DNA of 64,000 nt from Octopus vulgaris (Eukaryota): NCBI GenBank assembly GCA_951406725.2, contig OX597833.1, forward strand, positions 21,638,001 through 21,702,000, read 5' to 3'. Positions within the stretch are counted from its first letter, which is position 1. Every line of letters starts with the position of its first letter. Position numbers and translations under genes: made by a program. Below the pieces are notes generated by a model that was not told the DNA's origin, made no database searches, and saw nothing but the letters and a program-made list of their open reading frames with translations. Positions 7,585-60,909 of the stretch are shown here, piece after piece.

Positions 7585-9512
7585 CTCAACAATGTCCCTT
7601 GGGTGGTGACCACCGCAGACTGCTGGTTGGCCCACAACAGGTCCTACATAGGAATGATGGCACACTGACTTGATCACAAGACTCACACAAGACAATATGA
7701 CATCCTGGCTTGCTCATGGCTCAGAGGACATCACACCTTTGATGTTTTTGCCCAGACCATGGTGGACATCCATTACAAGTTCCGTCTGCAAGACAAGGTG
7801 ACCAGGATGACAGCGGATAACAGCAAAAACTTTGTTATGGCATTTATGCAGTTTGGTACAGAAGTTGAACTCTTGCCAGACATTCCTGAGGCTGCTGCCG
7901 ATCCAAACATGGAGAGCATTGAGGATGTGGACCTGGACATGGATTTCGAGGCTGGAGATGTGGACAAAGTTGAGTACATTGTTGAGTCTATTGATGCTAT
8001 CCTTGATGAGCCCAGTGGCCTATGCCTAAACCTGCCAGTGCACATAAAGTGCACAGCCCATACCTTCAACTTGGAAGCCAGCATGGATGCCGACAAAGCT
8101 CTTGACAGTGCTTTGTTCAAATCAGTCGACAGGAAGGCCATGTTCAAAGCACAGTGCCTGTAGAATCAGCAGAGCTGCAGCACGGTGGCAGCAGACAGTA
8201 TTCTGGATGTATTGAAGAAGAGGCTGGCAGTACCCAACACTACCAGATGGAACTCTGTCTATGACTCTGCTGTTGACCTCAACAACCTACTGATGAAGAA
8301 TAGGGGAGCTGTCTACAAGGTGATGACGCAGCTGAAGCTATAGGCCTTCACTGATTCTGAAATCGGCTTCCTGACAGAGTATGCCCGGGTGATATCTAAT
8401 GTTGCCAAGGCCTTTGATAAAGTCCAGCGGGTGGACCACTATAGTTGGCTGAAGGCTACCAAGATTGGGAGCCTTCTGCCAACTGTAGTGGTTACTGTCA
8501 TAAAGTTGAAGGAGGCCAAGTTCAAACATTTCCTGTACTGCAGTCCTCTGGTAGACATGACACTGGCAGACCACGAAAAGGTTTGGGATCCTCCTAGAAG
8601 ACCTGAAGTGCCAGCTAGCTGCTGCCTTCTACCGCAAGTTTCACCTGTTCTGGCTGGAGCAGTATAATAACAGCCAGGTTAGCAGAGTAATGAACGCCAC
8701 AGAGACCATCGTAGAGATAGTCCTAATAGAGACCAATGAGGAGGGTAGCAGCACTTCCAGCAATGAAAATGAGGAAGATGAGTTCTTCAGCAACATCATT
8801 TGGTTCTGGGAGAGCAGGAGCCACAGGTCACTGAAGTCCAAGGCGCAGAACCTGGTGAAGATCTGACTGGAGGCTGTCTCGAAGGAGGTCTTGAGTGAAG
8901 TTGTCTTGTTGAGTGAGAGGTCTTGATTAACCTGTTCACCAAGTATAACACCACAATCCCATCCAGTGTTGCAGTTGAGCACCTATTCTCTATAGGTAAA
9001 GATATTTTGAGAGCCAAGAGAGTCACCTTGTCAGGTGGAAACTTTGAGAGGCTGATGTTTATAAAGGGCAACCAGCATTATATCAGGGCAATGGAGAAGG
9101 CCCAGCCAGAGTAGTACACCTTGATCATCATCTGATCTTGGTATGATACCTATACTATACTATACCTTTTTTGATTCATTTAAGACTTTTTCTACAGTAA
9201 AACAAGTGTATGTTGACAGAAAAACTGATGTTTAATTTCACTTATTCATTTAATTATTTGCATACTGCTTTTTGGAAAGATCTGACTAAACTACATGAAA
9301 ATTTCAGCTATCTAGGTCTGTTTTTAGGGTTTTTAGAGCCAAAAACCAAACCAAAACTACATTCATATGATAAAAGTAAATGGCTATCATTTAGCATTAG
9401 CTTCCACTAAATTTTTTTACCTGTTTAGCAGTTTAGCATTTGTGATGCTAATCTTTTTAGTTAGCTGTTTAACAGTTAGTGAAGCTAACTTTTTGGTTAG
9501 CTGTACCCACTA

Positions 9513-9985: not shown

Positions 9986-9991
<6 letters not shown>

Positions 9992-10190
9992 TATATAGAA
10001 GGAGCTTCTACAGGACTAGTACTGTTTCATTCAAGAGAAATCTTCAGGAAGCTGAGCTTCCTGAAGATTTCTCTTGAATGAAACAGTACTAGTCCTGTAG
10101 AAGCTCCTTCTATATAATAAATTAATTTTACTCTGCTATGTATTGAGTACCTTACTTACTGTGGTTAACCCCGAATCAACCCGGGACCTA
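9986..10190 (+). mobile_element. Fold-back element with hammerhead-like core (Penelope-like terminus) in (TA)n
   Basis: Perfect 137-bp palindrome 9986-10122 (1-nt loop). CTGAAGA(10061)...GAAA(10080)...GTC, then AATAAA and a ~70-bp unique tail. Confidence 0.7.
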
Positions 10191-10323
10191 CATATATATA
10201 TATATATATCATCATCATCATCATCATTGTTTAACTTCCACTTTCCATGCTAGTGACCGCGTGTGTACCGTTGGCGATTTTTTTTCCTCTGTCTTCCCTT
10301 CTCTAGATCTTTCCTTCTCCTAT

Positions 10324-12589: not shown

Positions 12590-12882
12590 TATATTAGAAG
12601 TATTGGGGGTTATGTACAGATTTAATACATATGAAAGAAAAAGGTGTTCAGAATGCTGGATGGTTGTATATAAAAAAAAAAATTTATTTACATATCACAT
12701 ATTATTTCTTCAAATCACATATTTAATTACAATTTTAAGCACTTTCAACCACTACTGTAGTTTCAAAAGTGCTTAAGTATGTAATTAAATATGTGATTTG
12801 AAGAAATAATATGTGATATGTAAATAAATATATATTTTTTTTATATACAACCATCCAGCATTCTGAACGCTTTTTTCTTTCA
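12587..12882 (-). mobile_element. Fold-back element with half hammerhead in (TA)n
   Basis: ~250-bp imperfect palindrome 12632-12882, unique tail 12587-12631, GAAAgtgcTT near the axis, (TA)n on both sides. Confidence 0.6.
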
Positions 12883-12937
12883 CATATATATATATATAAT
12901 ATATATATATATATATGTATGTATGTATGTATGTATA

Positions 12938-15363: not shown

Positions 15364-15396
<33 letters not shown>

Positions 15397-15403
<7 letters not shown>

Positions 15404-15671
15404 ACATTACTCGGTAGTCAAGATAAAACTCTGAGTTTCAGATGCCGAAGTGGAAATCCACAACACCATCTCTTCGGTTATCTGGCTATTTGAAAACGTT
15501 TTCAAATAGCCAGATAACCGAAGAGATGGTGTTGTGGATTTCCACTTCGGCATCTGAAACTCAGAGTTTTATCTTGACTACCGAGTAATGTAACATATTG
15601 TATAGATAAATTTCCTCTATTTACATAATATTGAGGTCTCTTTCTTTCTTTTGTTATCTTACCGTTTTATC
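15397..15671 (+). mobile_element. Fold-back element with two mirror hammerheads in (TA)n
   Basis: Perfect 202-bp palindrome 15397-15598 followed by a unique tail to 15671; (TA)n on both sides. Confidence 0.8.
15512..15574 (+). ncRNA. Type-I hammerhead ribozyme motif (CCGAAGA core); mirror copy at 15421-15483 on minus
   Basis: agataa-CCGAAGA-gatg..gtgga tt tccac..catc-t-GAAA-ctc a gag-TT-ttatct; stems I, II and III all pair. Confidence 0.7.
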
Positions 15672-15694
15672 ATATATATATATATATATATATG

Positions 15695-15822
<128 letters not shown>

Positions 15823-40304: not shown

Positions 40305-40919
40305 TCATTCATTTTTGGTGACATTGGCTTTACTGTCTTCAGCAACATTGGAAGCCGATTTGTCGAACTCAGCAGTCGGGTCAACTTTTATATTGTCCGG
40401 AGCTGACCAACGCCTTTTGCGTACCTGTTGAACTCCTAAGCCATTACCATTATTGCTAGTGTTGGTAGCAGTGCTATTTTTATTGCTACTAATGTCTTCT
40501 GGGGCTAAATTTGTCTGAGTCTCAGTACTGTGTGTTGTAGTTTGTTTATGACCGAAGCTCATAGCTGCTGGAGGGCTGCAGTGCCGACTTAAATAAGATG
40601 ATTGGTTTTGTTGGCAATTAGACACTGGGGATGATGTTGATTTTGTGGATAGAATTGTATTCATAGTAGAAGTAGTACTAGCAGTTCGGAAGTTGGAGTG
40701 GGCCTCTCCGTCGATTTTGGTCCCCTTAAAGCTCTGCTGGTATTGGGGATGGATCATATCTCTGGGCGCTTCTTTGTGTGTCAAAGATATGCAGACATCC
40801 CCAACTGATAACTTGTGGCAGTCAAGTCCATAGCGCTTTATCGTTCGTTGGGGACAACATGATGACCATCCTTTGCCAAAAACAAAGAAAGGATGTTCCA
40901 GGGTGGCTTCCACAGTCAC
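40305..40919 (-). CDS. ATXN1: Ataxin-1-like gene, last coding exon (C-terminal AXH domain, RKRRWSAP motif, stop)
   Basis: Acceptor TTTTTTCTTCTTCATCAG|GTG, phase 0. Translates VTVEATLEHPFFVFGKGWSSCCPQRT...KLSVGDVCISLTHK (AXH) and VRKRRWSAP. Total CDS 8+1576+615=2199 nt = 732 aa plus stop. Confidence 0.95.
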   Translation of the reverse strand: MTVEATLEHPFFVFGKGWSSCCPQRTIKRYGLDCHKLSVGDVCISLTHKEAPRDMIHPQYQQSFKGTKIDGEAHSNFRTASTTSTMNTILSTKSTSSPVSNCQQNQSSYLSRHCSPPAAMSFGHKQTTTHSTETQTNLAPEDISSNKNSTATNTSNNGNGLGVQQVRKRRWSAPDNIKVDPTAEFDKSASNVAEDSKANVTKNE

Positions 40920-42284
40920 CTGATGAAGAAGAAAAAAAAGTATTAATATTTACAAGAATAATTAATTATCAATTATTAATTAATTAACATCAACATAAAA
41001 GTATTAAACAAACGTTTGCCTGAATCTTTGAGACAAAGAACTACCATTCTATTATACAGTAAATGCTGTAAAATGGTTGGCATTAGAAAGGGCTTCCAAC
41101 CTAAGAACCCATGTCAGAGCAGGCACTAGAACACGCAGCTGTCGTTGGGCCCATCAAATTCTATTCAAACCTTCCGACCATGTCAGCATGGAACATGGAC
41201 GTTAAATGATGATGATGATGATGATGATGATACACCTATATTTATAGACTAGTGTCGGAATCTTGGTTTTCTTCATCACAGCATTTTGGTCATTGTACCC
41301 TGTGGCCATCTTTAGGTGCCAGCCTTGTTTAGTAACATTCTTGGGATTCTGGAATTTGGAACCAAACCTTGCATTAAATCTGCAGAATAGATTGCTCTTG
41401 TTTCACCATGTAATATACTGAGCCAAAATTTGAAACCGTCACCATTATTGAAACATGTGTTGCATGAACAGAACTATTGAATACATATTTGTATTCATTT
41501 ACTAAATACATATATATACACAAACAGTATTGCGGCTGATTTATTTGACTAAACCCTTCAAGGTGGTGCCCCAGCATGGCCACAGTCCAATGACTGATGG
41601 AAACAAGTGAAAGAGAAAAGACAGACAGTTCTTATGGATTTAATGAAATACCTCGGCAAGAATAAAGAGTGATGAAACAAACACCACAAACATTTTAATC
41701 ATAATGATAACAACAACAACAATAATAATAATAATAGTACTTTCTGCTGTAGGCACAAGGCCTGATTTTTGTGGGGAGGGGACTAGTCGATTACATCAAC
41801 CCCAGTGTTTCACTAGTATTTAATTTATCGACCTCGAAAGGATGAAAGGCAAAGTTGACCTTGGTGGAATTTGAACTCAGAATTTGAAGACAGACAAAAT
41901 ACTGCCAAGCATTTGGCCAGGCATGCTAACAATTCTGCCAGCTTGCTACCTTCAACAACAACAATAATAATAATAATAATAATACCAATAATCCTTTCTA
42001 CTGTAGACACAAGGCCTGAAACTTGGGGAATGGGGATTGTCGATTACGTTGGTCCCAATATTCAACTAGTGCTTAATTTAGTGACACCAAAAGGATGAAA
42101 AGCAAAGTCAACCTCAATGGAATTTGAACTCAGAACATAAAAACGAACAACATGCCACTAAGCATTTTGCCTGGCTTGCTAACAATTCTACCAGCTCACC
42201 ACCTTATTAATAATCATAATAATAGTATGCAGCATAGAAAATTTCAGGAAGAGGAAACATAGTCATTTATATCGCCTCCTTTAA

Positions 42285-42506
42285 CCCTTTCATTACGAAC
42301 CCGGCTGAAACCAGCACTGGCTCTGTAGTACAAATGTCTTGTTTCCATAAGTTTTGAATTAAAATCTTCCACCAAACCTTAGTCACAATTTATGTTCCTA
42401 ACACTAGCTTAATGATAACTAAGTTATTTTACTAAATTCTTTCTTATATTTAAAATTAATTGACAGAAACACAGAGCATCTTGAAATAAATACAGTAACG
42501 AAAGGG
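42285..42506 (+). mobile_element. piggyBac-type MITE (222 bp)
   Basis: TTAA|CCCTTTCATTAC ... GTAACGAAAGGG|TTAA. Confidence 0.85.
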
Positions 42507-42914
42507 TTAATGTGATTTGCACATCATTTAACTGACTGCAGAAGGATGGAAAGTAAAGTCCATCCCAAAGGTATCAGAATGCAAAACATAATGGGATGGA
42601 AAGTAATTTTTATCCATCTACTATTCTACTGATTTGGCCAGACCACTACAGTTTAAAGAAAAAATTACAGTAACAATAATTATGATTTAAACAACAATGA
42701 ATAAATAAGTAAATACACACACACAGACACACTCACTAATAAATATTTATTAAGTATTAATTCATTTTAATTATTCATGATAAACTGCCAAATATTTCAA
42801 TCAATTGAAGTCACTGGACATTGGAATCAGTTGACTGAAACATATGGCCATTTGTCATGAATCATAACATTGATTAACAAATAAATATTTCTCATAGGGT
42901 TTTTTTCCTTCTCT

Positions 42915-43170
42915 CACAAATGAGAATACTAAAAATGAATCTGGATGCTCTCAAAAATTAATTAAAAAAAAAAAACGGAAAAATAATCCAGAATCCTTGT
43001 CCAGTACCCGATTGATCCCAAAATCTAATCAGTTCATGCCAGTCACAAGGCCAAACATTCCTGAAAGATTCATCTGAATCTATCCAGCGGTTCTTGGAAT
43101 ATCTTGCCCACGGTCTAACAAACATGACTAAAAGCAATACCGCTGCCTTTGCTAAGGTGGAGGTAATAAT
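42915..43170 (+). mobile_element. Interspersed repeat with 3' hairpin (ACC.C.GCCTT..CTAAGGTGGAGGT), possibly Helentron/DINE-like
   Basis: Second copy at ~62010-62262. The class assignment is inference. Confidence 0.5.
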
Positions 43171-43320
43171 AATTGATATGAGATCCCCATGTCACACACA
43201 TATGGTTGCGATGCACGCACCTGGTGTATTTTTATGAGACGGATAGTCATGATGGGTATATTGGACTTTGTATATTTGTACTCCAGTGTCACTTTGATGG
43301 CATGCACTGCTCCCTCACTC

Positions 43321-43361
<41 letters not shown>

Positions 43362-43784
43362 TAATAATCCTCTCTACTATAGGCAGTACTCAATCCCAGT
43401 ACTCGACTGATACTTATTTCATTGACCCCTAAAGGATGAGAGACAAAGTTGATTTCAGCAGAATTTGAACTTAGAATGTGAAGACAGACGAAATGCCACT
43501 AAGTATTTCACCCGGCACGCTAACGATTCTGTCAGCTCACCACCTTGATAATAATAACAATAATAATAGAGAAGATTGGAACAGAAAGTCCTGTAGAGCT
43601 TTTCTACAGAAAGTTTCCCTCTTTGGGACAGGAAAGATTATTAGAAGGGTTTTAAGCACTTAAAAGACAATTGAAACACCACTAAGCATTTCATCCAGCA
43701 TGCTAACAATTCTGCCAGCTCACCGCCTTAATAATAATGATGATGATGATGGTGGCGGCGGCGGCAGGAGGAGGAGGAGGAGGA

Positions 43785-43839
<55 letters not shown>

Positions 43840-44055
43840 CATCATCTTTTCTACTCTAGGCACAAGGCCCAAAATTTTTGGGAGGGACCAGCAAATTAGA
43901 TTGACCCCAGTATTCAATTGGTACCTAATTTATCGACCCTGAAAAGATGAAAGACGAAGTCAACCTAGGTGGAATTTGAACTCAGAATGTAAAGACAGAT
44001 GAAATATGGCTAAGCATTTCATCCGGTGTGCTAGCATTTCTACCAGCTTGCCGCC

Positions 44056-44124
<69 letters not shown>

Positions 44125-44524
44125 TCTTAAAAAGGATTGATGTAACTCTTCTTATTTTGAACTTGACAAAGACAGATGTACTGTTAAAATATCGTTCAAC
44201 TAATAAAATATCTTACAATCGAATTGCGCTCTTCGTCTTAATAATAATAATAATAATAATAATAATATATATATATATTTCTTTATTGCCCACAAGGGGC
44301 TAAACAAGGACAGACAAAGGGATTAAGTCGATTACATCGACCCCAGGGCAAAACTGGTACTTTATTTATCGACCCCGAAAGGATGAAAGGCAAAGTCGAC
44401 CTTGGCAGACAGATGTACTGTTGAAACATTATACAACTAATAAAATATCTTACAATCGAATCGCGCTCTTTGTCTTGACTAATAATGATAATAACAATAA
44501 TAATAATAATATGCATGATTATAC

Positions 44525-46100
44525 CTGAACTTTATTTTCACCAACCAGGAAGCTGAGAATAGTGGTTCCAAGGTCCACATTTTCATCCGTACGAACCACT
44601 GTGCTGGAGTCTATTTTGAGGTCAGCACTGATCTCTGCACTGTGAATGAAATCGTTTGTCTGTAAATCTTCAACACGCTTCAGGTCACCATTGGCAAGCT
44701 GAATGATTGAACCCTTGATGAAATGCGGAGGATAGTGAAGGTGTGGTGTCATAGGGGCGTTAGGTATTCCAGGCGATGTCCTTGTGCCTTGTAGTTGTGG
44801 TTGATGATGTGGTTGGTGTTGCTGTTGTGGTTGTTGTTGTTGGTGTGGGTGTTGGTGTTGTCCAATTCCCATTTCACAGCCTGTCGATGCCATCTCGCTG
44901 ATCGACTTTGACCGTTTCGCCGGCGATATGGCTTCTGACTTATGATGATAAGTCTTTGCCCCAGCGGACAATACTTGCTCTGGCTCTACGACTGGAGATT
45001 CGTTGATTTGGATGTTGGGTGGCCGGGTGAGTATACGGTGTTTCAAACTACCCTCTTTGCCACTTGGTACCTTGTAACCCAAGTCCTTATTGAGATCTGT
45101 TTTGGGGGTGGTTGTAGTGTCCTTCAGTAAAGAACTGGTTTTATTCTGAGTCGATAAGGGAGATAACTGACGAGAGTGCAAGTGTTTCTGTTGTTGTTGT
45201 TGTTGTTGTTGTTGCTGTTGTTGTTGTGATGAGGCTGAGTGAGACTTATCCTCTTTTGAAAGACTATGAGAAGGGGCAACTCCACGTGGCGAGTGACTGT
45301 AGCCGTCGACAGTCGCAGCCTCAGCGAGCGAATCCCTCATTTGTTCTTGTTTAGGAGAGTGTTGATGCATAAGAGCTGACTGGCTGGGCGAGTGTCCGAG
45401 GTTGCCGGCGGAGCTGGGAGAAGTGGTCGGAGTCGCATTCCGATGACTGGACAGTGGAGAGTATTGTGATATATGAGTTGGCATGAATGTGCGAGGTAGC
45501 TGCGATTGGCTGACATGCTGGGTGTGGCTGCCCATGCTGGCGAGGACAGCAGAGTAGGAGTCCAAGTGAGGGTAGTGACCAGCTGGTGACAACAGGCAAC
45601 TAGGTGAGTAGCCTTGTGGGTATTGAGGGTAGAATGTATTATAAGGTGACACGGCACCAGATGCTAGATGACCGGCTGGCTGTCCATGAATGCTATAAAG
45701 AGAGGAAAATGAAGCTAGTGAGCTATTGGCTGTCGTATAGAGAGAGTTACCGTATTGGCCAGCGTGATAAATCCTTGGAGCTGGATCAGCAACAGTTGGA
45801 GAAGGCCGAAATAAGCTGCCAATAGACGATTGGCTGCTGTTAAGAACCGATTGCATCTCCAGACCAGGCTGTGTAGCTGTGCGCACGGTATGCAAGCTTT
45901 CTGCAGCTTGGACAATAGTTGGAGCAGTGTAGCCGGGGAGAAGGCTGCTGTGAACAGGACGAAGGGGTAAAGAGGGTGCTACACTTTGAGTCGATCCATC
46001 GCCAGTGCTGGTGTTTGGGAAGCAAGAGAAAGGACGTGGAGCTGTTACTGAACTACTTTGAAGAGGAACAGGAACTCTACCATTCTGTCCACAGCCATTT
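44525..46100 (-). CDS. ATXN1: Ataxin-1-like gene, large exon (low-complexity S/P/Q/H region, polyQ, N-terminal part of AXH domain)
   Basis: Frame is open from acceptor TTTTTTTCCAG|A (46101-46103) to donor CAG|GTATAA (44524). It extends the 458-aa ORF-track ORF upstream without stops. Ends in YPPHFIKGSIIQLANGDLKRVEDLQTNDFIHSAEISADLKIDSSTV...VGENKVQ, matching the ataxin-1 AXH domain. Confidence 0.93.
45188..45226 (-). repeat. Coding polyglutamine tract, 13 Q: (CAA)3 CAG (CAA)8 CAG
   Basis: Read directly from the sequence, in frame with the ataxin-1 exon. Confidence 0.95.
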
Positions 46101-46819
46101 CTGGAAAAAAAAAAAAGACAAGAGGAAAAGATATTTTAAAAGAGGGAATATTTAAAAAAAAAAACAAAGAATATTTGCTGTTACCATACAAACAAAATAT
46201 AAAATAATTCTTTTAATAAACAAAAATAAACGTGATAAGAAGCTTGCTTCCCAATCACATGGTTCTGGGTTCAGTTCCATTGTGTGGCACCTTGTGCAAT
46301 AACCTTGGGCCAATCAAAGCCGTGTGAATGGATTTGGTCGATGGAAACTGAAAGAAGCCTGTCATATATATGCGTGTATGTGTGTGTGTGAATTTGTCTC
46401 CCACCACTTGTTTGATAAATATATAGATATTATATATTAAGAATAATAAAGAGTATGGAGACTTGTACATATACAAAATTTTTTTGATAGCTATATACAA
46501 CATATCAACTATTATTAATATTAATATATACTCCAGGGGTAACCTTTACAGTCCAGCGTAGAGGACACAGAATTATCCATCAGAAGAATCCATGGAGTGA
46601 CTAACAATTAATTGTAGACACAAATGTTGGATACTGATTGTTGTGATATATATATATATATATATATATAGATAGATAGATAGATAGATAGATATAGATA
46701 GATATATATAAGATATGAGGAGTTTTTGTCAGAGTGATTCAAACTAATAGGTATGCTACTAAAATTCTGGTTTTGATTTGAACTACTGTTGAACTGCCGA
46801 CTATACCTACATACCTTCA

Positions 46820-53820: not shown

Positions 53821-55292
53821 AATATAGGCGTAAGAGTGGCTGTGTGGTAAGTAGCTTGCTTACGAACCACATGGTTCCATGTTCAGTCCCACTGCGTGGC
53901 ACCTTAGGGCAGGTGTCTTCTACTATGGCCTCGGGCTGATCAAAGCCTTGTGAGTGGATTTGGTAGACGGAAACTGAAAGAAGCCTGTCGTATATATGTG
54001 TATATATATATATATATGTGTGTGTGTATGTGTGTGCGTATGTGTTTGTGTGTCTATGTCTGTTCCCCCAACATCGCTTGACAACCGATGCTGGTGTGTT
54101 TATGCCCCCGTAACTTAGCAGTTCAGCAAAAGAGATGGAGAGAGTAAGTACTAGGCTTACATTACAAAGAATAAGTCCTGGGGTCGATTTGCTCGACTAA
54201 AAGCAGTGCTCCAGCATGGCCACAGTCAAATGACTGAAACAGGTAAAGAGTAAAAGAGTATATATATAGAGAGAGAGGAGGAGAGAGGGAGAGATAGAAA
54301 GATAGACAGACAGAGACACACATAGGCAGAGAGAAAGAGAGAGAGCAACAGAAGATAGATATAGATATATTGAGGGCTTCTTTCAGTTTTCTTCTACCAA
54401 ATCCACTCACAAAGTTTGGGTTGACCCAGGTTTACAGTAGGTGACATTTGCCCAAGGTGTCACACAGAGGGACTGAACCTGGAACCATGTGGTTGGGAAG
54501 CAAACTTCTTAACCACACAGCCACACCTGCACCTATGGCTCAGCACTCATCAATACACTAATCTGAGAAAAGTGACATGGTGGTCACGATTGGAAAGTCT
54601 CTGTTCGTAACGTTTTGCCCACATCATGACTGACCCAGGGAGCTAAACCAACAATAACAACAACAACAACAACAAAAACAATTTTAATAAAATGAAGAAT
54701 GAGTCAGAACATTCCTGAACTTCTTAGATATGAGAGGAGGAGGGGGAAGGCGGGGAGGGGAAGATCATCAACAAACAAGTAAAGCATATAAGGTATGTAA
54801 ATAAATAAAATAAAAGCAACTACACACACATGCACACACATACACGTGCACACACACACGCAGTCTGCAGGCACTTGTGCAAATATGCAAGTCAAAGTCA
54901 TACATTTTCCCCTTTTTTATTCTCTCACACACCCAAAGCATACACTCTCTCATTCTCCTTCTTCCCCCTCTCCTCCGCCTCTCGCAGGCCCAACTATACA
55001 AATTATAAACTCACAGGCCTGGGAATACTCACATATACATATATACAACAACTCTCTTACTCTCTCTCTGTCTCTCCTCCTCTTTCACTTTAACACATAC
55101 AAACATTCTGCAGTCACATAACAACAAATGTATACACTGCTTTCATATATTACCCAACTCGCACACCTGTGATTACATATGTAAAACGTTTTACATAGGT
55201 ATAGTAGAAGACCCTGGCGGTACCTTGGACAATTGTCTTCTACTATAGCCTCAAGAGTGGATTTGTTAGATGGAAACTGAAAGAAGCATGTA

Positions 55293-58567: not shown

Positions 58568-60909
58568 TAAGACATCACACAGTATCCAATGTTGTTATTA
58601 TCATTATTACTATTAATAATATTAATATTACTGTTCCTAATTTTAGTACAAGACCAGCTATTTTAGTGGGGAGAATATCAGTTGAGTACATATTACCCCA
58701 GTATATAGCTGGTACTTGATTTTATTGGCCTTAGAAGGATGAAAGACAAAGTTGACTTAGGGTAGACTTTGAACTCAGAAAGCTAAGCATTTCATCCAAT
58801 TTACTGACGATTCTTCAAGCTTGATGCTTTAACAATAACAATGGCTCCAAATTTTGGTAAAAAGCCAGCAATTTTATGGGAGAGGGACAGTCGATTACAC
58901 TGACCCCCACCCCACCCCATCACTCAACTTATATAGATTTTAAGGCTGACCTCATCAGAATTTGAACTTACAATATAAAATGACAGAAGAATGCCACAAA
59001 GCATTTTATCTGATGTACTAGCAATTCTGCCAGCCTGCCATCTTTCTTTTATTCTTTTACTTGTTTCAGTCATTTGACTGCGGCCATGCTGGAGCACCGC
59101 CTTTAGTCGAATCAAATCAACCCCAGGACTTATTCTTAGTACTTAGTCTATTAGTCTCCTTTGCTGAACCACTAAGTTATGGGGACCTAAACATACCAGC
59201 ATCAGTTGTCAAGCGATGTTGGTGGGGGACAAACACAGACACACACATATATATACATATACACGACGGGCTTCTTTCAGTTTCCATCTACCAAAGTGTC
59301 TTCTATTATAGCCTCGAGCCGACCAAAGCCTTGTGAGTGGTCACAAGGCTTTGGTCGGCTTGAGGCTGTAGCAGAAGACACTTGCCCAAGGTGCCACGCA
59401 GTAGGGCTGAACCCAGAACCATGTGGATTTGGTAGACGGAAACTGAAAGAAGCCTGTCGTATATATGTATATGTGTGTGTGATTGTCTGTGTTTGTCCCC
59501 TAGCATTGCTTGACAACTGATGCTGGTGTGTTTACGTCCCCGTCACTTGGCGGTTCGGCAAAAGAGACCGATAGAATAAGTACTGGGCTTACAAAGAATA
59601 AGTCCCGGGGTCGATTTGCTCGACTAAAGGCAGTGCTCCAGCATGGCCGCAGTCAAATGACTGAAACAAGTAAAAGAGTAAGATATAGCTTATTAGCGAA
59701 TAAGCAAGGGGGAAGAGAGCGAAGAGAGATGAGGGCTGTTAATTTAATTAGCTTTAACCTTAAATGCTAATTTACTTAGGTAATTTTTGAGAAGGCCATG
59801 CCACCAAAGATCATCACACAAAGTAATAGACCAGCCTCTCTTAGCAATCCACCCTCCCCACTATCGCCATCACATTCAATGACACCATACCCCGTCCCCA
59901 TTATGCACCCCTTAATCTCCCTAATTTATAGCTCTTTAAAACTCATGCAGTGCAAATTTACTTAGAGGCTGTGCTGCAATGTTTCAGCAAGCCATATCTT
60001 GACAGGGTTTGCAGACACTGTTTTATTGCAGTTTGAATGTCAGAGCAGCAGCAGAGAAGGTGGATGGTAGAAGGGAGAGGTATGTGGGGTTTATTGTAGT
60101 TTATCTGTAGGTGAGGAGGAGGAGGAGGAGGAGGAAGAGAAGGAGCAGAGACAGAATGTGACAAAATGTCAACACTAAACAAGTTGTTGGAATAAAAGTG
60201 AGAGCAATAGGGAGGCAGTGTGGAGAGAGGTGAAAGGGGGGGGGGGGTGACTGAAGAGGAGGCAAAAGAAAAAAAGGAACAGGCTATAGGGGGGCACAAG
60301 TGCGAGGGGGACAGACAGGCAGAGGGAGGAAAATGAAAGAGGAGGAATGTAAGAACTGTTTAAAAAAATATGCCATACATACACAAACATACATCACACC
60401 ACACACACAAACATATACTGTTTATGTATATATATATACACACACATAACATATTATTATATACACATACATGTATACATACACACACCATGAATTCAGA
60501 GTGAGTAAGCTTTTTAATAGCACTTCATCTATTTTCTTTTGTGTCTTTATTTAAATTGGCTGTTTTTTTAAAAAAAACATTACTATCATTATTGTTGTTG
60601 TTGTTGTTGTTATTACTATATTTTTGCTTTGATTGACTTTTTGAAGTTGAACAGCTGTTGTATGACATCACGTTGACGTAGAATACCAACAGCCCCACCT
60701 CAACCAACACCAGACCACCACAGCCGCCACCTGCATCCCCACCTCACACCCACCCTGTTTGTTTTTACATTTTTTATCAATGCAATTAAAAACTAATGCA
60801 TACTTTCCTTTTTCTTTTTTTTCTTTTTCCTCACCCTGACTTTGAACATGTTTCTTATATATAATATGCCTTGTTATCATCATCATCATCATCATAAACC
60901 ACAATATAG

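Follow-up and report, generated by a model that had tools for sequence, protein, structure and literature searches.

Back-to-back hammerhead motifs in a perfect 202-bp palindrome of Octopus vulgaris: a probable Penelope-like insertion with its own inverted copy

Results and Discussion

A perfect palindrome in a (TA)n tract

The 275-bp element described here is very probably the 5'-truncated end of a Penelope-like retrotransposon (PLE), consisting of a pseudo-LTR, a hammerhead motif and a tail, that was inserted together with its own inverted copy into (TA)n DNA. This reading is based on the combination of an inverted 5'-truncated copy, a one-sided tail, a hammerhead and an AT-rich target, which is the published signature of PLE insertions. 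The window, i.e. the whole stretch of DNA that we analysed, is 64 kb long.

A self-complementarity scan yielded two arms of 101 nt each (15397-15497 and 15498-15598) that are 100% complementary, with 0 nt between them and an axis between AAAAC and GTTTT at 15497/15498. The preliminary description, which had reported perfect arms without loop or mismatch around that axis, was accurate in this respect, as it was for a 73-bp tail on one side only and for an inverted arm that terminates at an internal ATAT (15595-15598). The organization of the element is as follows.

15366 to 15400, no strand: left (TA)n target tract, TA x17.5, the last 4 nt of which are common to the arm end
15397 to 15497, minus strand: inverted, tail-less copy of the element end, most likely the derived fold-back arm, as the sequence upstream is non-palindromic in other copies
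15495 to 15500, no strand: AACGTT hexamer at the axis, the likely fold-back or annealing point, also present in the non-palindromic family copy
15498 to 15598, plus strand: direct copy of the element end, a putative 5'-truncated pLTR-like segment
15599 to 15671, plus strand: one-sided 73-bp tail; family ends at 15668-15672 are joined to (TA)n
15672 to 15821, no strand: right (TA)n/(TATG)n target tract

No other even-centred perfect palindrome of the window is as long; the next one listed has an arm of 26 and is a (TA)n tract. Elsewhere, a 20-bp palindrome at 55178-55197 has the same AAAAC/GTTTT axis and is otherwise unlike the element. The element has no ORF, and the unique DNA beyond the palindrome differs between the two sides, such that neither flank mirrors the other.

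The nearest recognised gene ends approximately 25 kb away. It is an ataxin-1-like gene on the minus strand (40305-46135) with a short polyglutamine run and an AXH domain split over two exons (44519-46135 and 40305-40949), the best named relatives being an Argonauta hians ataxin-1-like protein (77%) and a cuttlefish protein (66%). We also scanned ORF pieces against Pfam. Of 645 pieces, 346 passed a complexity filter, and the 150 scanned were the longest of these with a start before 40 kb. The scan gave only weak, sub-threshold matches to hAT dimerisation and BRF1 domains, with no reverse transcriptase family or host exon near the element. A decayed hAT-like transposase remnant lies at ~7670-9110 on the plus strand, including a weak Dimer_Tnp_hAT match below the cut-off at 8917-9111. 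Two further structures of the window are an AT-rich, MITE-like foldback at ~12630-12885 (core 12672-12839), with long imperfect inverted repeats and a 14-nt spacer, which adjoins (TA)n and has no hammerhead motif, and an imperfect hairpin with 43-bp arms at 59294-59383, apparently formed by a common short repeat, two pieces of which are inverted relative to each other.

A non-canonical hammerhead motif on each strand

The same hammerhead had been claimed on each strand of the palindrome. We searched both strands of the 64 kb with a type I descriptor built on a core pattern and requiring stems I to III. It returned four matches, two of which are exactly those claimed; the other two are in a second palindrome at 9986-10122. 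A looser pattern limited to the core gave nine matches, four of them inside the two hammerhead palindromes.

15421 to 15483, minus strand: type I hammerhead motif with the same sequence as the plus copy
15512 to 15574, plus strand: type I hammerhead motif, from the descriptor and folding

The plus-strand motif has a 6-bp stem I (15512-17/15569-74), the core segments CCGAAGA (15518-24) and GAAA (15556-59), and a stem II that starts with G15525-C15554, the G10.1-C11.1 pair thus being present. Its stem III of 3 bp is palindromic, and helix III pairs with itself at eight of nine positions (-7.4 kcal/mol). Cleavage is predicted after U15568, the last base of a GUU triplet. Every position of the CUGANGA...GAAA...UH core is found in the element except for U4C, and an extra pyrimidine (U) at 15555 is inserted between C11.1 and G12, 3' of stem II. 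These two features make the motif non-canonical as judged from its sequence. According to an excerpt of PMC3088659, U4C lowers hammerhead activity in vitro and is tolerated in one viroid.

Neither of two scans with the Rfam hammerhead models (E<=10 in one, E<=1 in the other) matched the element. When the 63-nt motif was folded in isolation, stem I was absent from the MFE structure, and 14 of 200 shuffled sequences folded as well. Stem I has pair probabilities of 0.25-0.91 in the tail-less arm, which drop to 0 when the tail is included; the tail end (~15648-15659) is then predicted to pair with the 5' strand of stem I and the core, with probabilities of 0.92-0.99. This blocking helix is not beyond chance, as pairing of equal strength was obtained with 131 of 1000 shuffled tails.

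Any one transcript of the palindrome would contain one sense hammerhead and its exact antisense, the latter coming first. We predict no ribozyme activity in read-through RNA, in which the sense arm would be fully paired with an antisense arm made before it. Folding predictions favour the hairpin by approximately 100 kcal/mol (-188.3 kcal/mol, vs -87.1 kcal/mol for the best hammerhead-containing fold). The hairpin proposed in the preliminary description is therefore predicted indeed, but the competition with the ribozyme fold that it envisaged was overstated, the contest being this uneven.

By eye, a pyrimidine-rich tract followed by AG is found just 5' of stem I (15498-15509), and a GT donor-like site at 15585 is followed by a pyrimidine-rich tail end up to 15671. 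By analogy with Drosophila Penelope, these might possibly correspond to retained introns.

A second element of the same build

The other two descriptor matches belong to a second element located 5.3 kb from the first.

9986 to 10191, no strand: second element of the same build, with perfect 68-bp arms (palindrome 9986-10122) and a 1-nt loop at 10054

Its hammerhead (10054-10106) has a GUA site, a 7-bp stem I, a 4-bp palindromic stem III and, like the first, a U before G12. In common with the first element, it is flanked by (TA)n on either side and has a tail at one end only (~69 bp); its axis is at the first base of stem I. The local similarity between the two elements was matched or beaten by 8 of 300 shuffles. 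Thus, the second element is not clearly related in sequence to the first and would belong to a different family. As both axes are situated 5' of stem I instead of at the cleavage site, we reject a fold-back set by ribozyme cleavage.

The element belongs to an abundant repeat family

We surveyed the family by aligning the Logan contigs of four sequencing runs to 15468-15685; none of the listed pieces spans that whole stretch. Runs X1 and X2 come from one study with two organism labels, other than the possible source of the assembly, whereas X3 is the possible source sample. These three are DNA-like runs; X18 is guessed to be RNA, and its single contig was excluded as evidence of expression. Contig depth left of the axis was left unused because contigs there fit both arms, and summed depth does not equate to copy number. 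Contigs matching the element numbered 1,773 in X1, 9,528 in X2 and 2,986 in X3, with one in X18. At least 0.8 of 15 words sampled from the element were present in 20 of 24 listed runs, under nine organism labels. Two of these 20 runs, outside the four aligned, comprise only 5-6 million letters, which indicates a very abundant repeat. The arm and tail therefore represent a very abundant repeat family in octopod genomes.

Contig cover climbs at ~15495-15500 and collapses past ~15670. The following counts refer to the best-supported loose ends, outside which there are 275 more. The ends behind 15668 and 15672 continue mostly into (TA)n, in 37 and 12 contigs of X1, 72 and 25 of X2, and 54 and 13 of X3, respectively; thus, the family 3' end is joined to (TA)n in all three DNA-like runs. 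In X1, the tail-less end behind 15608 also joins (TA)n (six contigs among the best-supported ends). These junctions support the earlier proposal of priming or template switching on the TA target, for the tail-less end in that one run. They also bear on another class of elements: a MITE or foldback DNA transposon was rejected, because the family extends 73 bp past the repeat at its 3' end, and on that side only, without terminal repeats at both ends.

Upstream of 15495-15499, other copies share a non-palindromic sequence, found in at least 15 contigs of X1, at least 31 of X2 and one of X18. Between 15495 and 15669 the X18 contig has the same sequence as the window; upstream of this come 82 unlike letters. 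Since the sequence that other copies have upstream does not mirror the right arm, the parent must be non-palindromic and the left arm derived. The parent sequence already holds AACGTT, and a comparison by hand shows pairing at 8 of the 11 positions closest to the axis. Judging from this sequence, the axis region of the parent is an imperfect palindrome that was perfected in the window copy. Two other opposite-strand joints, 15509/15615 and 15512/15604, were found among the listed loose ends, in one contig each.

These data bear on whether the palindrome might be a self-standing, non-autonomous mini-element, copied whole with a fixed axis and mobilised in trans by a PLE. All 15 words are found in runs X1 to X4, under three organism labels, X18 lacks two of them, and 12 of the 14 distinct 31-mers missing from the X18 contig span the axis; hence, the word across the axis is very likely present outside the source sample as well. 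One diverged contig of X1 also crosses the axis (15468-15539, with six other letters and three gaps), with 30 letters left of it, below the 31-letter bar for bridging. However, the upstream sequence is non-palindromic in at least 47 contigs from three runs, there are other inversion joints, and the imperfect palindrome of the parent, acting as a hot spot, accounts for a recurring axis. A perfect 101-bp hairpin would moreover be a poor template for reverse transcription. We thus regard whole-element copying as improbable, and in the literature we found no report of non-autonomous palindromic fold-back Penelope elements or of inverted palindromes of hammerhead pLTRs.

A fold-back artefact of assembly or library preparation at this locus appears very improbable. 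Both flanks are microsatellites and no listed contig spans them, as such an artefact would have it, but both outer ends are family-typical (TA)n junctions, and a folded-back read would also have mirrored the flank, in contrast with the differing unique DNA on the two sides. All 15 words are moreover present in two runs of a study other than that of the possible source, and an element of the same build lies nearby.

Five variants reach at least 5% in the family. Only two fall inside the hammerhead motif, at 15546 in an internal loop and at 15555 (T>C), the latter making up ~9-35% of the depth; 15581 and 15582 are polymorphic sites outside the motif. T15555C could pair with G15525 in a slipped register, which is 6 kcal/mol worse for the U allele. 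The distribution of variants within the motif weakly backs a hammerhead.

A scan of viral contigs for exact 20-mers gave no match. The single 20-mer match in metagenome contigs is 21 bp long in DNA of 65% GC, and we dismissed it as a chance hit. No RNA dataset among the 24 listed runs carries the element words, and we found no description of this family in the literature on octopus Penelope elements and hammerheads.

Probable insertion as a Penelope-like element

The comparisons in this section refer to excerpts of the cited sources. In PLE insertions, an inverted 5'-truncated copy is frequently found, together with a tail on one side (Craig 2021, PMC8557442; Arkhipova 2013, PMC3846280), and the palindromes at their junctions are mostly head to head and have been interpreted as products of self-priming. 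Both strands of AT-rich DNA are cut and extended in vitro by a PLE protein, which uses uncut RNA and starts reverse transcription at two sites, the interval between which is the tail (PMC11167929). Metazoan PLEs have minimal hammerheads that occur as opposite-strand pairs with a palindromic helix III (Cervera and de la Pena 2014, PMC4209133). In O. vulgaris, 190 families of PLEs account for 6.83% of the genome.

The insertion unit of endonuclease-bearing (EN+) PLEs (PMC3846280; PMC8557442) resembles the element in its head-to-head direct and inverted copies, junction palindrome, tail at one end, AT-rich or (TA)n target and terminal-repeat hammerhead, of which our element has the motif only, with a variant core. 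In contrast, the element is only 275 bp long and has no ORF, and its tail exceeds the published 30-40 bp, at 73 bp or, measured from the 15608 end, about 63 bp. Similarly, in Poseidon PAc of Anolis (Frangieh 2024, PMC11167929), hammerhead stem II starts with an ATG, the tail is defined by two alternative 3' ends, and the inserted copy spans the uncut hammerhead; PAc differs in that the element's frame, starting at the stem II ATG (15526), closes after 20 codons and in that the element is known from sequence alone. A search for a longer protein from that ATG, with stops read as X, yielded one candidate, with no hit at E<=10, which is weak evidence. EN+ PLEs have a single ORF for a telomerase-like reverse transcriptase with a GIY-YIG endonuclease; neither this search nor the Pfam scan connected such a sequence to the element.

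The element shares with the minimal PLE hammerheads (PMC4209133) a type I topology, a long helix II and a short palindromic helix III suited to dimers, yet their extra nucleotide is between positions 9 and 10.1, whereas that of the element is between 11.1 and G12, and the core of the element has U4C. As there is no second sense hammerhead in cis, a dimer would need two molecules. Non-LTR retrozymes (bioRxiv 10.64898/2026.07.22.740005) are likewise short, non-coding, PLE-derived and equipped with a type I hammerhead, but they form head-to-tail tandem arrays and not head-to-head pairs; blastn found no direct repeat of the element unit in the window. Finally, the octopus Naiads (Naiad_Obim and Naiad_Ovul; PMC8557442 supplement) have the same host group and preference for (TA)n. 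The Naiad clade has an N-terminal GIY-YIG ORF and no canonical hammerhead, while the element lacks an ORF. A 20-mer of the element is absent, on one strand, from the text of that supplement, whose line breaks or cuts could hide it, and the printed 3' end of Naiad_Obim is unlike the element by eye.

Altogether, the element most likely represents an ordinary PLE insertion of an already published type, and its family could not be matched to a named one. As extrapolated from what is published on PLE biochemistry, an autonomous partner would supply the GIY-YIG endonuclease that nicks (TA)n, and reverse transcription would begin at the tail end and run back through the uncut hammerhead. The cDNA might then halt in the imperfect palindrome around AAC/GTT and fold back, and the folded cDNA would copy itself up to the internal ATAT, which would anneal to the other TA end. 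We lean slightly towards this fold-back route for the inverted arm. The other candidate route, to which we would give somewhat less than even weight, is that two cDNAs were primed from both target strands at the two start sites of reverse transcription and joined via the self-complementary hexamer AACGTT. The inversion step of PLEs is itself described as unresolved (PMC8557442; PMC11167929).

In both routes, the arms were most likely made in one insertion event and were identical from birth, so ongoing arm-to-arm conversion is not needed. The preliminary description had suggested either such conversion or a very recent insertion. The latter is loosely supported: the absence of differences over 101 positions gives an age bound of ~4 My, calculated by hand with a JC distance of 0.09 for 25 My (PMC13282606), which points to a young insertion. 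No target-site duplication is readable within (TA)n.

Resemblance to mir-9

The Rfam mir-9 model matches 15462-15533 with 60.6 bits, for a gathering score of 58.6. It includes the following segment.

15502 to 15524, plus strand: stretch complementary to the Rfam mir-9 5p consensus, with 19 Watson-Crick and 2 G:U pairs of 23, overlapping stem I and the core

Identity to the mir-9 5p consensus is 19/23, the best in 128 kb (both strands). The sense strand pairs with miR-9 at 21 of 23 positions, including positions 1-13, with -26.6 kcal/mol compared with -36.7 for a perfect duplex, and U4C gives a G-C pair to miR-9 position 6. The segment forms an imperfect inverted repeat with 15647-15669, i.e. 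the 5' strand of the hammerhead with the tail end, both resembling strands of the mir-9 duplex; for this reason the tail end matches the mir-9 motif at 17 of 23 positions. An excerpt of PMC9699675 (table S5) lists Mir-9 as expressed in the skin and suckers of O. vulgaris.

A microRNA gene of the mir-9 type is ruled out by the perfect 101-bp stem, the difference at seed position 5 and the dispersed nature of the repeat. More broadly, the hairpin could be a miR-9-related small-RNA locus, or the family could carry a functional miR-9 target site over the hammerhead core, in line with the score above the gathering cut-off, the identity and pairing, and the listed expression of Mir-9. We consider this hardly credible. 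The match disappears when one arm is scanned alone, and perfect hairpins score on many microRNA models: our hairpin obtains 86.9 bits on plant MIR6140 and the second palindrome 69 bits on mir-3199, both below the gathering scores. As a mimic, the element differs from miR-9 at position 5 of the seed, and a dispersed repeat offers no conserved single locus. The binomial chance expectation after multiple testing ranges from 0.0007 to 0.3 depending on assumptions (~0.005-0.1 at p=0.28). The match is thus probably due to chance, in a comparison with the Rfam consensus, from which octopus miR-9 may differ. We also think it very unlikely that slicing guided by host miR-9 between 15514 and 15515, and not self-cleavage, processes or restrains the RNA of the family, with fold-back insertions templating miR-9-like small RNAs.

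Significance

Perfect hairpins of this kind yield false microRNA calls, as the Rfam mir-9 match illustrates. Scattered in octopus DNA, they are candidate double-stranded RNA substrates in a group of animals with heavy A-to-I editing. Finally, this young and abundant family, having polymorphic sites as well as identical arms, makes it possible to test self-priming against two-primer models of PLE inversion across the genome.
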